15,338 bases of DNA from a virus: UHGV virus genome UHGV-1839376. One strand, given 5' to 3'. Position 1 is the stretch's first letter. Each line of letters starts with the position of its first letter. Both the position numbers and the translations under genes were made by a program. The notes under the pieces were generated by a model. It did no database searches. It worked only from the letters and a program-made list of their open reading frames with translations, and had not been told where the DNA came from. Below are positions 65 to 14,053 of this stretch, in pieces.

Positions 65-853
65 CCGAAACACGAAGTTAACCCACTGATGACTCTCCGC
101 CGCCTGCCGGATGAGGATCCGCAGAATCTCGCTGACCCGGTCTATCGCCGTCGCCGCATCATCCTTCAGAACATGAAGGATGAAGAGCTGGCGATTGCTC
201 AGGTCGAAGAGAAACAGGCTGTTTCGGCGGTGCTCAGCGGTAAATACACCATGACCGGGGAAGCGTTCGAGCCTGTTGAAGTCGATATGGGTCGCAGCGC
301 TGGTAACAACATTGTCCAGGCAGGTGCGGCTGCATGGTCAACCCGCGACAAAGAAACGTATGACCCGACCGATGACATTGAAGCGTACGCGCTTAATGCC
401 AGCGGTGTGATCAACATCATTGTGTTCGATCCGAAGGGCTGGGCGCTGTTCCGTTCCTTCAAGTCTGTTGAGAAGAAACTGGACACCCGTCGGGGTTCTA
501 ACTCAGAGCTGGAAACTGCCGTGAAAGACCTGGGTATGGCTGTTTCATACAAGGGTATGTATGGCGATGTGGCCATCGTGGTGTACTCCGGCCAGTACGT
601 CGAAAATGATGTCAAAAAGAACTATCTGCCGGATCTGACGATGGTTCTGGGTAATACACAGGCCCGTGGCCTCCGTACCTATGGCTGCATTCTTGATGCT
701 GATGCCCAGCGCGAAGGTATCAATGCCTCTACACGCTACCCGAAAAACTGGGTGCAGTCGGGGGATCCGGCGCGCGAATTCACCATGATTCAGTCAGCTC
801 CGCTGATGCTGCTGCCAGACCCTGACGCATTCGTCTCCGTCAAACTGGCATAA
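65..853 (+). pseudogene. E: Major capsid protein (lambda gpE-like), 5'-truncated fragment covering roughly the C-terminal 260 residues
   Basis: Translation PKHEVNPLMTLRRLPDEDPQNLADP...AREFTMIQSAPLMLLPDPDAFVSVKLA closely matches the C-terminal two thirds of lambda gpE as recalled. In-frame stops at 62-64 (TAG) and 53-55 (TGA); positions 1-61 are AT-rich and non-coding in all frames. Stop TAA 851-853. Confidence 0.85.
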
Positions 854-4182: not shown

Positions 4183-6676
4183 TCTGGTCGTTAACCTTGA
4201 CGTTAACTCGTCGAAATTCAGCGAGCAGCTTAACTACGTCAAAAAAGAATTAAAACAGACCGGCAATGCGGCAAACGACGAAGCGTTACGTATCCAGCAG
4301 TCCTTCATCCGCCAGGAGAACGCCGCGCGTAAGGCCGGTATTTCAGTGGGTCAGTATAACGCCGCAATGCGTATGCTCCCGGCGCAGTTTACCGATGTGG
4401 CCACGCAGCTGGCAGGTGGGCAGAACCCCTGGCTGATTCTGCTTCAGCAGGGTGGTCAGGTTAAGGACTCCTTTGGCGGGATCATCCCGACATTCCGGGC
4501 GCTGATTGGGACGGTTTCCCCGTTGATGGTCGGCATTGGTGCATTGTCCGTTGCAACGGGCGCGTTGTTCTATGCCTGGTACCAGGGCTCTTCCACTCTG
4601 TCTGATTTCAACAAAACGCTGGTACTGTCGGGCAACACAGCCGGACTGACAGCTGACCGCATTCTGGCGCTGGCGCGGAACGGACAGGCAGCGGGGCTGA
4701 CCTTCAACCAGACCAGTGAAGCGCTGACCGAGCTTATCAACGCGGGGGTGCGTGCTGGCTCGCGCTTTGATGACATGAGCCAGGCGGTGTCGCGGTTTAC
4801 CGATGCCTCCGGCGTGCCGGTGGAGAAAGTCGCAGCAGCCTACGGCAAGCTCGCAACGGACCCGACATCGGGCCTGATCGCGATGGCCCAGCAGTTCCAT
4901 AACGTTACCGCTGAACAGATTGCCCATGTGGCGCAGCTGCAGCGTGCCGGTGATGAGGCTGGCGCACTGCAGGCGGCTAACGAGGCTGCTACAGCCGGAT
5001 TCAACGATCAGACCAAAGCCATCCGCGACAATATGGGGACGATAGAGTCTTCAGCGGACTCCCTGAAGCGCGCCTTCAAGTCGATGTGGGATGCAGCCCT
5101 CGATATTGGCCGACCTGACACCGCGCAGGAGATGGTGGCAAAAGCCGAAGCCGCGTTCAAAAAAGCTGATGAAATCTGGAACCTGCGTAAAGGTGACCGA
5201 TATGTCAATGATGAGGCTCGCGCCCGATTCTGGAATGACCGCGAAACGGCCAGGCTTGCGCTGGATATGGCGCAGCAGCAGGCGGGAATTGCCAGGGCGA
5301 ACGAAGAGAATGCATCGCGCGAAGCGGCTGCGGAATCGGATCGCCAGAAGTATGCTGCGCAGGCACAGGCAAACTATGCCAAAACGCAGACGGCACTGGA
5401 GAAATACACGGCCAGGCAGAGCGAGCTCAACAAGGCGCTGAAAGAGGGGCGGATCCTCCAGGCTGACTACAACATCAACCTGGCTGCCGCGAAAAAAGAG
5501 TACGAAGACACCCTTAAAAAGCCGAAGAAAACACCTGCAGTCAGGACTCCTGCCGGTACCCGTGCAACCGATGCGGCCAGCGCCCAGACGATGGAGCTGG
5601 AAGCACAGCTGCGCACCCTGCAGGAGCATAAGGGGATAAATGACACCATCAGCCAGCAGCGTCAGGAGCTGTGGCGTAAGCAGTCCCGTTTTACGGTTCT
5701 GGAAGAGGCCGCGAAGACCCGGACGCTTTCTGCCGAGGAAAAATCCCTGCTGGCCAGTAAAAGCGAGGTGCTTTCCCGTGCGGAGCTGAACGCGAAGCTC
5801 GGCGATCAGATAGTGGCGCAGGAGCGGCTTAATCGCCTGCAGGATACGTCCCAAAAATACGTCACGCAGATCGGCGAGAAAACCCGAGCCCTGGCGGAAA
5901 GTGCTGGTATGAGCAGTCGTGCAGCACAACGCCGCAACGAGGAGGCCCAGCTTCTTCAGGGGTGGAAAAATGGTGGAGGTTCCGAAAACGATGCCGGTTA
6001 TCAGAATGAGCTGCAGGGGCTGCATGCGTATTACGCCGAGCAGGATAAGCTTCGGGGTGACTGGCAATCCGGAGCCAAATCCGCATGGGCAGATTATGTT
6101 GATTCTGCTTCTGATGCTTATGGCCAGATGAAGTCGTTTGCCAGCAGTACGTTTGATGGCATTGGGCAAAATATGGCTGACATGCTGACGCGCGGAAAGG
6201 CTGACTGGGCTGACTTCACCCGCTCCACGCTCTCCATGCTGACACAGATCCTGCTGAAACAGGCGATGGTAGGCCTGGTGGATTCAGCATCAACCGCGCT
6301 GGGATTTGCAGGTGGCGGTTATACCGGTTCAGGCGGGAAATATGAGCCAGCAGGTGTCGTTCACCGTGGTGAGTTTGTTTTCACCAAAGAGGCTACCAGC
6401 AGGATCGGCGTCGGCAATCTTTACCGGATGATGAAAGGCTATGCAACGGGAGGGTATGTCGGGGGCGGTGGTACAGGCCCGGCTGCAGCACCTTTCGGTG
6501 TCAGTGTGTATGCCCCGGTGACGGTCGAGAATGCTTCCGGTAACGCACAGCAGCAAAACGACGGAGACAGGCTGGGTAAGGCGTATCAGCAGGTGATTAA
6601 CAAATCTGTCAATGATGGTATCGCCAGGGCAATCCAGCCCGGTGGGCTTATCTGGAATGCGACCAATCGCAGGTAA
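4160..6676 (+). CDS. H: Tail tape measure protein (lambda gpH-like)
   Basis: 838 aa; long blocks such as GISVGQYNAAMRMLPAQFTDVATQLAGGQNPWLILLQQGGQVKDSFGG and GGKYEPAGVVHRGEFVFTKEATSRIGVGNLYRMMKGYATGGYVG match lambda H as recalled. AGGAGG RBS; start overlaps the T stop. Confidence 0.92.
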   Translation: MAQTAVGDLVVNLDVNSSKFSEQLNYVKKELKQTGNAANDEALRIQQSFIRQENAARKAGISVGQYNAAMRMLPAQFTDVATQLAGGQNPWLILLQQGGQVKDSFGGIIPTFRALIGTVSPLMVGIGALSVATGALFYAWYQGSSTLSDFNKTLVLSGNTAGLTADRILALARNGQAAGLTFNQTSEALTELINAGVRAGSRFDDMSQAVSRFTDASGVPVEKVAAAYGKLATDPTSGLIAMAQQFHNVTAEQIAHVAQLQRAGDEAGALQAANEAATAGFNDQTKAIRDNMGTIESSADSLKRAFKSMWDAALDIGRPDTAQEMVAKAEAAFKKADEIWNLRKGDRYVNDEARARFWNDRETARLALDMAQQQAGIARANEENASREAAAESDRQKYAAQAQANYAKTQTALEKYTARQSELNKALKEGRILQADYNINLAAAKKEYEDTLKKPKKTPAVRTPAGTRATDAASAQTMELEAQLRTLQEHKGINDTISQQRQELWRKQSRFTVLEEAAKTRTLSAEEKSLLASKSEVLSRAELNAKLGDQIVAQERLNRLQDTSQKYVTQIGEKTRALAESAGMSSRAAQRRNEEAQLLQGWKNGGGSENDAGYQNELQGLHAYYAEQDKLRGDWQSGAKSAWADYVDSASDAYGQMKSFASSTFDGIGQNMADMLTRGKADWADFTRSTLSMLTQILLKQAMVGLVDSASTALGFAGGGYTGSGGKYEPAGVVHRGEFVFTKEATSRIGVGNLYRMMKGYATGGYVGGGGTGPAAAPFGVSVYAPVTVENASGNAQQQNDGDRLGKAYQQVINKSVNDGIARAIQPGGLIWNATNRR

Positions 6677-12689: not shown

Positions 12690-12992
12690 ATGGCTTATGG
12701 AATACAGACCTGGGATGCTTCAGGAAAACCCAACAACTATGGCATCAAACCCGTTTCCGTCGTTGGGCGAATACAGCTGGCTGCCGGGCAAACCTCCGGC
12801 AGCTGGTCTTTTACGGTGCCCTCAGGAATGAAAGTTGGTTTTGTTCTTTCACTTGATGAAGGAGGTAACAGCGTAGGGCGGCGCATTGTCGCGTCAGGGA
12901 GCACAATAACCGTAAGCGCTGCATCTTCTGTAGGTCTGGGTAATTATCCGGCCTCAAAGTGTGAAGTGGTCGTTTTCATGGAGAAAGCATAA
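12690..12992 (+). CDS. Hypothetical protein (100 aa), first gene of the J-distal cassette; function unknown
   Basis: ATG 2 nt after the J stop, GGGAG RBS 9 nt upstream; stop overlaps the next start (TAATG). No recognisable catalytic motif. Confidence 0.7.
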   Translation: MAYGIQTWDASGKPNNYGIKPVSVVGRIQLAAGQTSGSWSFTVPSGMKVGFVLSLDEGGNSVGRRIVASGSTITVSAASSVGLGNYPASKCEVVVFMEKA

Positions 12993-13666
12993 TGGCCGAA
13001 TTTGGCGCGATGATATTAATGGACAACGGGAACCCATTTGTAACGCCCCAGTCAACGCCTTTTTGTCTTTACGGCAAGTACACTTTCAACTCCTCTGCTA
13101 ATGGCAGTTCGCAGCAGGTTGCTCAGAATATTGCATTAAATGCTGACTACCCTGTGATGGTATTTATCAGGACCACAAATACCGCCCAGCCCACGCCAGT
13201 AATATCTTACCGGAACGGAGGAAATGTATATGTCGCGGGGGTTAATCCCTATAACCAGAGCTTCACGTTAACCGCATATATATTTGCCATATTTCCCCAG
13301 ACGTTACCGAAATGGGGGATGGCCATCTGGGATGCGGCAGGAAAGCTGGTGCTCACTAATGAGTCCCGGGTGTTGTCCGACCTACAGACAATTGGAACGC
13401 CTGGCGCAAACGGAGGGATAAATATCGATCAGACACTTAGCGGGCCATGGGCTGTTGCACCTGCACAGCTTGGCCAAAGCATCGTTGTGAATAACTCAAC
13501 CCAGCCTCCGACAATCTACACCATTAATGCTTATTCGGCGTGCAGGTTTGACGGGGCCAATACGAGGATAAACGCAGGGGGGTCCTCCACTGGCACAGGC
13601 TCTCCGGGGGGGCTAACGAAGGCTGGCATTTCCTTAACCGCGATAAATACAGCGGCCTATGACTGA
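12992..13666 (+). CDS. Hypothetical protein (224 aa), second gene of the J-distal cassette; appears to hold two copies of the domain found in the preceding protein
   Basis: Translationally coupled to the upstream ORF; GGAG RBS. Internal segment KWGMAIWDAAGK resembles the N-terminus MAYGIQTWDASGK of the preceding protein, and the underlying DNA is also similar (16 of 19 nt). Confidence 0.7.
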   Translation: MAEFGAMILMDNGNPFVTPQSTPFCLYGKYTFNSSANGSSQQVAQNIALNADYPVMVFIRTTNTAQPTPVISYRNGGNVYVAGVNPYNQSFTLTAYIFAIFPQTLPKWGMAIWDAAGKLVLTNESRVLSDLQTIGTPGANGGINIDQTLSGPWAVAPAQLGQSIVVNNSTQPPTIYTINAYSACRFDGANTRINAGGSSTGTGSPGGLTKAGISLTAINTAAYD

Positions 13667-13718
13667 TTGATCGTTTTGGGCGATCAATAACTGATAATTG
13701 ATCTATCAAATCAATTAT
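13666..13718 (+). promoter_or_regulatory. Intergenic inverted-repeat cluster: 8-bp stem hairpin (13666-13688) and perfect 9-bp inverted repeat ATAATTGAT-N7-ATCAATTAT (13694-13718); candidate operator/regulatory region upstream of the lipoprotein gene
   Basis: Repeats read directly from the sequence; TTGAT/ATCAA half-sites recur at least five times within 55 bp. No confident -35/-10 pair identified. Confidence 0.4.
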
Positions 13719-13777
13719 ACCCACCTCTTTCATGTTGGTATTGTCTAAGTTCATGAATACCTCTGGATATCATCAAA

Positions 13778-14011
13778 ATGATTAAGCTTCTTATCGGTAT
13801 GGCTTGCGCTGCCATGCTTTCAGGTTGCGCTGGTGTACTTGAGAAACAGGAACCGATTTGCAGCGGCACGGCATATATGGGTGGCCATGAGAATACCGTT
13901 ATGATTTACGCCGTTCGAAAGCAAAACAACCAGACGCAATACCGGGCCGGATATCCCTTTAACTGGCGCTGGGTAAGTGCGAACACATTCACAAGCACGA
14001 CATGTAAATAA
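13778..14011 (+). CDS. cor: Small outer-membrane lipoprotein, Cor/Llp-like (putative receptor-blocking superinfection exclusion protein)
   Basis: 77 aa; signal peptide with lipobox LSGC (MIKLLIGMACAAMLSGC); two further Cys (ICSGTAYMGGH and C-terminal TTCK) in a pattern reminiscent of T5 Llp as recalled. Lies between J and the tail fibre gene. Weak RBS. Confidence 0.6.
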   Translation: MIKLLIGMACAAMLSGCAGVLEKQEPICSGTAYMGGHENTVMIYAVRKQNNQTQYRAGYPFNWRWVSANTFTSTTCK

Positions 14012-14031
14012 CTCATGACTTTCAATGCAAA

Positions 14032-14053
14032 CCTCGCCTCGGCGGGGTTTTTT
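14032..14053 (+). terminator. Rho-independent terminator after the lipoprotein gene (stem CCTCGC/GCGGGG with one G-U pair, CTCG loop, 6-T run)
   Basis: Read directly from the sequence, 21 nt after the TAA stop at 14009-14011. Confidence 0.55.

Follow-up and report, generated by a model that had tools for sequence, protein, structure and literature searches.

Within the 15,338-nucleotide stretch of the virus genome UHGV-1839376 that was analysed as a whole (hereafter the window), the inverted repeats between a 224-aa open reading frame (ORF) and the lipoprotein gene cor are likely to be the operator of an epigenetic switch, through which the host regulator OxyR and the methyltransferase Dam would control the cor promoter. 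The gene downstream of the repeats (13778-14011, plus strand) encodes the 77-aa lipoprotein Cor (PHROG 1119, E = 2.6e-34), a blocker of FhuA and a textbook superinfection-exclusion and lysogenic-conversion protein, which would be the regulated cargo of the switch. Switches of this kind are already known from agn43, phage P22 gtr and Salmonella opvAB. A literature search, with subscription journals outside its reach, returned no paper that connects cor with OxyR, with Dam or with phase variation and none on cell-to-cell variation in Cor expression, and a search by motif strings returned unrelated primer matches only.

In the proposed mechanism, the LysR-type OxyR of the host would bind as a tetramer (a dimer of dimers) to two half-sites, at 13670-13684 and 13701-13715, when three GATC sites are unmethylated. 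Bound OxyR would shield these sites (starting at 13669, 13682 and 13700) from Dam, and methylated GATCs would exclude OxyR. Competition between OxyR and Dam after every replication would set up two heritable states of the cor promoter, and the lysogen population would be a mixture of Cor makers, in which FhuA is blocked, and non-makers. The Cor-making cells would resist T1, phi80 and colicin M and would take up ferrichrome poorly. To judge from the sequence, the FhuA block of the prophage is probably switched on in some cells only.

The element consists of two repeat blocks. Box A (13666-13688) is the palindrome ATTGATCG-TTTTGGG-CGATCAAT, with arms at 13666-13673 and 13681-13688, and corresponds to the 8-bp-stem hairpin that an earlier sequence-only reading of this DNA had placed right after the stop of the 224-aa ORF; in relatives its consensus is ATTGATCGTT-TTG-AACGATCAAT. 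Box B (13694-13718) is the perfect 9-bp inverted repeat ATAATTGAT-N7-ATCAATTAT, with arms at 13694-13702 and 13710-13718, likewise as had been described. The words TTGAT/ATCAA, reported to recur at least five times in about 55 bp, occur five times (at 13667, 13683, 13698, 13705 and 13710), compared with 0.16 expected per 55 nt from the window-wide frequency (Poisson P ~7e-7). Overlooked by that reading were three GATC sites, the targets of Dam, at 13669-13672, 13682-13685 and 13700-13703, of which the second lies 13 bp beyond the first and the third 18 bp beyond the second. This is the sole 35-nt stretch of the window with three GATCs, and the string GATCG-N7-CGATC, for which 0.01 occurrences are expected in the window, is found once. 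GATC 2 is present in all homologous cor-type upstream regions that were aligned. All three GATCs lie within or at the edge of OxyR-type half-sites, an arrangement expected of an OxyR/Dam switch.

Two such half-sites of 15 bp each can be placed on the element. The distal half-site A (13670-13684, ATCGTTTTGGGCGAT, centre at about -75) scores 7/10 against the OxyR consensus ATAGnTnnnAnCTAT, and its counterpart in most relatives scores 8/10; the proximal half-site C (13701-13715, ATCTATCAAATCAAT, centre at about -44) also scores 7/10. They are separated by 16 nt, which is the spacing type of reduced OxyR, and Box B coincides only in part with the proximal half-site. The sequence-only reading had proposed an operator array for a dimeric DNA-binding protein. 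An operator-type DNA element is indeed what the data point to, but the arrangement is more specific than a row of TTGAT half-sites that would serve any one dimer. Its conserved positions match a pair of half-sites for the LysR-type OxyR, accompanied by the three Dam sites.

The strongest internal evidence for OxyR comes from a family profile. Two pattern scans of IMG/VR, one with the Box B pattern and one with TTGATCG-N7-CGATCAA, gave 111 distinct 62-mers with the architecture of this cassette, which were reduced to 38 representatives less than 85% identical to one another. Their consensus is ATTGATCG nTnnnAn CGATCAAT n7 AATTGATCT nnnn AAnCnATTAT, with AATTGATCTnnnnAAnCnATTAT as the consensus of Box B. 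In the interior of half-site A only T6 (33/38) and A10 (31/38) are conserved, and these are the two interior positions that belong to the OxyR consensus; in half-site C, A10 and C12 are found in all 38 copies, A14 in 35 and T15 in 37. None of these six positions was constrained by the search patterns, and each carries the OxyR consensus base. Positions free in the consensus are near random (0.08-0.41 bit), save that position 9 of half-site C favours A or T. The GATC positions, 13 and 18 bp apart, are fixed in nearly all copies despite differing cargo, with the HK022-type phages excepted; the offset between GATC 2 and GATC 3 is 19 bp in a single copy (L183). Two further candidate half-sites were rejected: a third one beyond half-site C is not conserved in the family, and the left half of an N7-spaced half-site B (13692-13706, 6/10) is not conserved either. 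The profile yields a search pattern for further cassettes, namely ATTGATCG-N7-CGATCAAT, a third GATC 18 bp past the second, and a -10 hexamer 23 nt past the proximal half-site.

The operator is tied to a separate predicted promoter of cor. Its extended -10 (13736-13744, plus strand) reads TGgTATTGT (TGGTATTGT) and was transferred by alignment from the annotation of the phi80 record FN582354, as was the transcription start at 13752 (uncertain by about 1 nt). In 11 phages the T, G, T, A, T and final T of this element are invariant. Among 41 representatives with unrelated cargo, 26 have a TAnnnT hexamer exactly 23 nt past half-site C, and any other offset is found at most five times. Because the -10 hexamer stands at this fixed distance, the six bases right after half-site C are taken as the -35 slot. 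At cor this slot (13716-13721, plus strand) reads TATACC, a poor match 17 bp ahead of the -10 hexamer; in other cassette types it reads TTGAAC, TTGATA or TTGAAG. A sigma-70 promoter scan finds nothing here, since it needs both hexamers and the cor promoter combines an extended -10 with a poor -35. Counted from the annotated start, the OxyR-type site extends from -82 to -37, right up to the -35 slot, a placement at which OxyR occupancy could alter the predicted promoter. Downstream, an intrinsic terminator at 14029-14050 (plus strand) closes the unit; it was found by a terminator scan and is also annotated in the phi80, HK140 and mEp213 records. With its own conserved extended -10 upstream and its own terminator downstream, cor has the organisation of a moron, and the independent regulation that the sequence-only reading had suggested for it is borne out to this extent.

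In an alignment of eleven phages, among them HK022, mEp213, Fostie and Enterobacter phage LAU1, conservation is higher in both repeat blocks and the TGnTAT..T element than in the spacers or the last part of the upstream gene. In a wider set of cor loci, with one genome per species, the sequences of Box A, Box B and TGnTAnnnT and the exact distances between them are preserved ahead of cor in eight genera: Escherichia, Enterobacter, Klebsiella (a phage), Rahnella, Hafnia, Trabulsiella, Pseudocitrobacter and Buttiauxella. Across these genera nothing has been inserted or deleted between Box A, Box B and the -10, whereas the surroundings (spacers, 5' untranslated region and the last part of the upstream gene) have diverged until they can no longer be aligned, which indicates that the element is under selection. 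The repeats are thus kept in related prophages, where their conservation had been proposed as a check, and in distant ones as well. The cassette is absent upstream of cor in the virulent phages T1 and Dhillonvirus UAE_MI-01 and in the phages SSU5 and POCJ13, and this distribution fits a function in the lysogen.

Several observations weigh against an OxyR/Dam switch at cor. Scored against the generic OxyR consensus, this single sequence does not reach significance: its 14/20 is the best in the window, yet 75 of 200 whole-window shuffles (37%) reach at least 14, and the best half-site score of 7/10 is equalled by 41% of region shuffles. OxyR-type half-sites are recognised here through the family profile and through arms equal to those of validated gtr sites. 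In the 38 copies, half-site C mostly has T at position 4, against G in the consensus, and varies at position 13. The half-site gap is 16 nt at cor and 17 nt in gtr and agn43. OxyR leaves unexplained both the conserved TAT after half-site C and a perfect TATAAT on the minus strand (13714-13719), which was read from the sequence and points left through the operator. The cor start is a putative one, taken from a GenBank annotation. Finally, HK022 (L008) and HK544 (L009), compared with window positions 13669-13703, have GATT in place of GATC 1 and TATC in place of GATC 3, both sites having been lost together. These phages are down to one GATC, yet their cor is intact, and control by methylation is therefore not universal. 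They retain GATC 2 and the OxyR consensus positions, and could represent naturally occurring 'locked' versions of the switch.

Which state of the putative switch is ON cannot be read from the sequence, and we lean only slightly towards the OxyR-bound, unmethylated one. We do so because of the opvAB-like geometry, the poor -35 and the rigid spacing between operator and promoter, and because the HK022-type phages keep the half-site consensus and an intact cor despite two lost GATCs, a pattern that would be odd if OxyR binding silenced cor. The opposite logic, with OxyR as the silencer, has precedents in agn43 and mom.

An operator for some other protein, be it a host LysR-type factor, an unknown regulator or a phage protein, with the GATCs as mere parts of the recognition sequence and no regulatory role for Dam, is the alternative that survives best, and we consider it unlikely. 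The non-significant consensus match of the single sequence speaks for it, as do conserved flanks outside the OxyR consensus (ATT before GATC 1, AAT after GATC 2, AATT before GATC 3 and TAT after half-site C). HdfR and other members of the LysR family also bind sites that contain GATC (PMC6735912). The arms, on the other hand, are identical to those of gtr sites bound by OxyR, and the conserved positions that the search pattern left free follow the OxyR pattern. A phage-specific protein is also hard to reconcile with the surroundings of the cassette, which adjoins lambdoid-type tail genes as well as baseplate-like genes of unrelated prophages, with differing cargo.

The element could also be a classical OxyR site that activates or represses cor under peroxide stress, the GATCs giving no heritable states. 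OxyR is primarily an oxidative-stress regulator, the HK022-type phages keep the half-sites with only one GATC, and the alternative half-site B has the N7 spacing that is reportedly used by oxidised OxyR. The lack of conservation in the left half of that half-site argues against this explanation, as do the three GATCs held at fixed positions in front of differing cargo, and the agn43, gtr and opvAB switches are independent of the OxyR redox state (PMC4856963). On balance, a site without phase variation seems rather improbable.

The minus-strand TATAAT could be a divergent or competing promoter, or merely the flank of the OxyR site. If the former, the repeats would be part of a promoter-operator unit that faces left, like that of agn43, with the hexamer (13719 to 13714) firing through the OxyR site and either producing an antisense RNA to the end of the 224-aa gene or competing with the cor promoter. 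The perfect hexamer is kept as (T/G)A(T/A)AAT across the 38 diverged copies, and the flipped layout resembles that of agn43, whose likely -10 (TAGAAT) overlaps a half-site. There is, however, neither a -35 nor a TG motif to go with it, the promoter scan is empty, and no terminator or ORF lies on the left side. Moreover, positions 14-15 of half-site C explain part of the hexamer, and the cargo genes always lie on the opposite side at a fixed distance. A leftward unit is therefore an alternative of low probability.

The sequence-only reading had offered a structured RNA element as its second option, and two hairpins in the late transcript, serving processing, attenuation or antitermination, can indeed be drawn: the plus strand folds into them with -15.8 kcal/mol (z = -3.15), and paired cells make up 87% of the family alignment of 40 sequences, in which helix 2 shows some double changes. 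A palindromic DNA site yields identical pairing statistics, however. The T/C at 13711 (pair 42-52) is unpaired in 23 of the 40 sequences and never compensated, and HK022 has changes in the left arm of hairpin 1 but none in the right, again without compensation. T6 and A10 would fall in a 'loop', and their conservation is what a protein site rather than a hairpin would lead one to expect, and the element lies outside the cor mRNA, upstream of the annotated start. Rfam gives no match over 13660-13777 even at E up to 10; the only matches at this permissive threshold are weak, terminator-driven ones downstream of cor. As the sequence-only reading had already remarked, hairpin 1 lacks a U-run and is no classical terminator: its AT-rich stem is followed by AACTGATA, and the terminator scan reports nothing at 13666-13700. 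A functional RNA structure is accordingly very improbable.

A Fur (iron) or FNR/CRP-family (anaerobic) operator is hardly credible, for although TGATAAT at 13692 is a Fur-like heptamer, TTGAT/ATCAA are FNR half-site words and the Cor target FhuA is iron-regulated, the best Fur match (10/19 to GATAATGATAATCATTATC) is equalled by 83% of shuffles, the heptamer is not conserved in relatives, the best FNR match (7/10) is equalled by 43% of shuffles, and no TTGAT/ATCAA pair has the required 4-nt spacing (TTGAT-N4-ATCAA). In consensus scans of 13655-13730 for Fur, FNR, CRP, IHF, Lrp and DnaA sites, none beat shuffles.

The window represents the tail end of a temperate siphovirus like phi80, with 99% identity to Escherichia phage Phi06_2987 and 93% to phi80, and the chromosome of E. 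coli UPEC85 carries an identical copy of the region, at about 4,220,970-4,221,130 of NZ_CM137000.1. The phi80 lysogens XL10-Gold (NZ_CP081008.1:1859519-1859674) and JCL301 also have this region. The 224-aa ORF (12992-13666, TGA stop at 13664-13666) is assigned to PHROG 425. A Pfam scan of Cor, this ORF, a 100-aa ORF and three other cargo peptides gave no matches. For the tail-fibre gene beyond cor, the ORF list gives a start at 14025, inside the cor terminator, and the phi80 records a start equivalent to 14071 (ATGCTTTATAAC...); the latter is more plausible.

The cassette is not confined to cor. In other prophage types, copies from IMG/VR stand upstream of unrelated small cargo genes, which encode a 40-aa membrane peptide, a 47-aa protein, a membrane protein of about 100 aa, a protein that is DinI-like by eye and a methyltransferase that is Dam-like by eye; three copies sit after a baseplate-like gene. 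With slightly less than even confidence, we propose that a portable three-GATC OxyR/Dam cassette is widespread in unrelated enterobacterial prophages and makes many small accessory genes bistable, with Cor lysogens hedging FhuA-dependent iron uptake against resistance and the HK022-type phages, having lost GATCs, locked in one state.

Some variants of the cassette deserve mention in their own right. In Aeromonas phage pAEv1818 (L012) and in two Serratia loci (L031 and L035), cor is preceded by a rearranged element, CCAATTGATTTTGATGATATTGATCGTT-GCA-AACGATCGTT, about 15-19 nt and TGATAGGAT, in which the half-site with the GATC pair adjoins the promoter, as half-site C of gtr does. Two kinds of cassette lead into short terminator-ended transcripts that may be small RNAs. 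The first kind (L056, ~650-760, minus strand; L100:12600-12790; L107, ~4300-4500, minus strand) continues after the two boxes with GTGTAGAAAT and then a stretch of about 55 nt that ends in the terminator AGCCCGCC(C/T)CGCGCGGGCTTTTT, with no ORF and no Rfam match; this stretch may be a prophage small RNA under the same switch. The gene upstream of it is baseplate-like by appearance, and the phage type is unrelated to phi80. In one of these loci some 2 kb separate the cassette from the host small RNA RybB (L107:2467-2546; Rfam RF00110, 102 bits), and the prophage end is next to rybB. The second kind, found in L170, L179, L184, L188, L199 and L217 (IMG/VR), has the proximal element AATCGATCTGTATAAACGTTTATAAAA, the extended -10 TGTCATTAT and a short A/T-rich leader followed by an apparent G+C-rich stem-loop (GGGAAAGCGAAGCCCACCGT...); its product could be a small RNA or a very small ORF. 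The Dam-like methyltransferase (L168:12090-12900; MSTPIIPWVGGKRRLAKHILPLFP..., 251 aa) starts about 40 nt past a cassette-like site with four GATCs, and a methylase behind a methylation-sensitive operator could form a feedback loop.

If the switch at cor is real, receptor blocking by prophages of the phi80, N15 and HK022 types would be a bet-hedging trait, in which lysogen populations balance FhuA-dependent iron uptake against resistance to FhuA-dependent phages and colicin M. The interpretation of data on the phage sensitivity of lysogens, colicin M killing and ferrichrome uptake would then be affected, including those from phi80-contaminated laboratory strains. The short list of OxyR/Dam switches (agn43, gtr, opvAB and mom) would grow by a set of prophage cargo genes that can be recognised by sequence.

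Among these known systems, the gtrABC regulatory region of phage P22 shares its half-site arms with cor. There, OxyR binds two blocks with GATC pairs and a central ATAG...CTAT block, with the half-site consensus ATAGxTxxxAxCTAT; methylation abolishes OxyR binding, and OxyR protects the GATCs (Broadbent et al. 2010, PMC2909390). GATC1/2 are located at -110/-97 and GATC3/4 at -46/-33, each 13-bp pair being inside one half-site (PMC2909390). The gtr region reads AAATTGATCGGTAACAACGATCAATTAAC...ATAGATAAAAACTATCAAATTATAC...ATTGATCGCTTGTATCGATCAAAAC, followed by the extended -10 TGcTACACT; half-site A is ATTGATCG-GTAACAA-CGATCAAT and half-site C is ATTGATCG-CTTGTAT-CGATCAAA. Box A of cor has the same arms, 7-nt spacer and 13-bp GATC pair as gtr half-sites A and C (ATTGATCG-N7-CGATCAA[T/A]), and both systems concern a prophage lysogenic-conversion gene that alters a phage receptor and is served by an extended -10 promoter. 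Unlike gtr, which has three half-sites (A, B and C) 17 nt apart, four GATCs and two OxyR positions (AB = ON, BC = OFF), cor has a single tetramer site, with two half-sites and three GATCs. In gtr, 18 nt separate the -10 from the end of half-site C, which overlaps the -35, whereas the proximal half-site of cor abuts the -35 and ends 23 nt before the -10.

With agn43 (flu) of E. coli the cor operator shares one OxyR tetramer site, three GATCs and one GATC-pair half-site. The regulatory region of K-12 agn43 reads ...ACGATCAATATCTATTTTATCGATCGTTTATATCGATCGATAAG... and contains the 8-bp inverted repeat ATCGATCG-TTTATAT-CGATCGAT, with a 7-nt T-rich spacer and GATCs 13 bp apart; its single-GATC half-site is 19 bp away, compared with 18 bp at cor. 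Judging from the promoter read in the sequence (TTGTCC-17 nt-TAGAAT), the agn43 site lies over the -10 and the transcribed leader, whereas the cor site precedes its promoter and is turned the other way round relative to the gene. At agn43, OxyR is purely a repressor, and methylation corresponds to the ON state (PMC3764049).

The geometry of cor is like that of opvAB in Salmonella, whose OBSC is centred at -75 and OBSD at -43, compared with -75 and -44 for the half-sites of cor. OBSD (GATCGATATAACCAGT) scores 7/10, contains a GATC and lies directly upstream of the -35 (PMC4856963, PMC7708049), and half-site C of cor resembles it. Expression of opvAB requires OxyR, which activates transcription from OBSD and sits there when the switch is ON (Cota et al. 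2015, PMC4856963). As predicted for Cor, phage resistance is confined to a subpopulation. The opvAB region differs in having four half-sites and four GATCs with alternating occupancy (A+C versus B+D), in its distal OBSC, which is a perfect ATAG...CTAT without a GATC, and in being a chromosomal locus rather than a prophage moron.

Like cor, the mom gene of phage Mu is preceded by an OxyR site that contains three GATCs. In mom the site lies further upstream than at cor, and OxyR represses; mom is not known to undergo phase variation. Dam methylation blocks OxyR binding at the mom site (mentioned in PMC2909390). As far as features that can be tested in the sequence go, the cor operator would belong with the OxyR/Dam switches, and it is distinct from each of the known examples.

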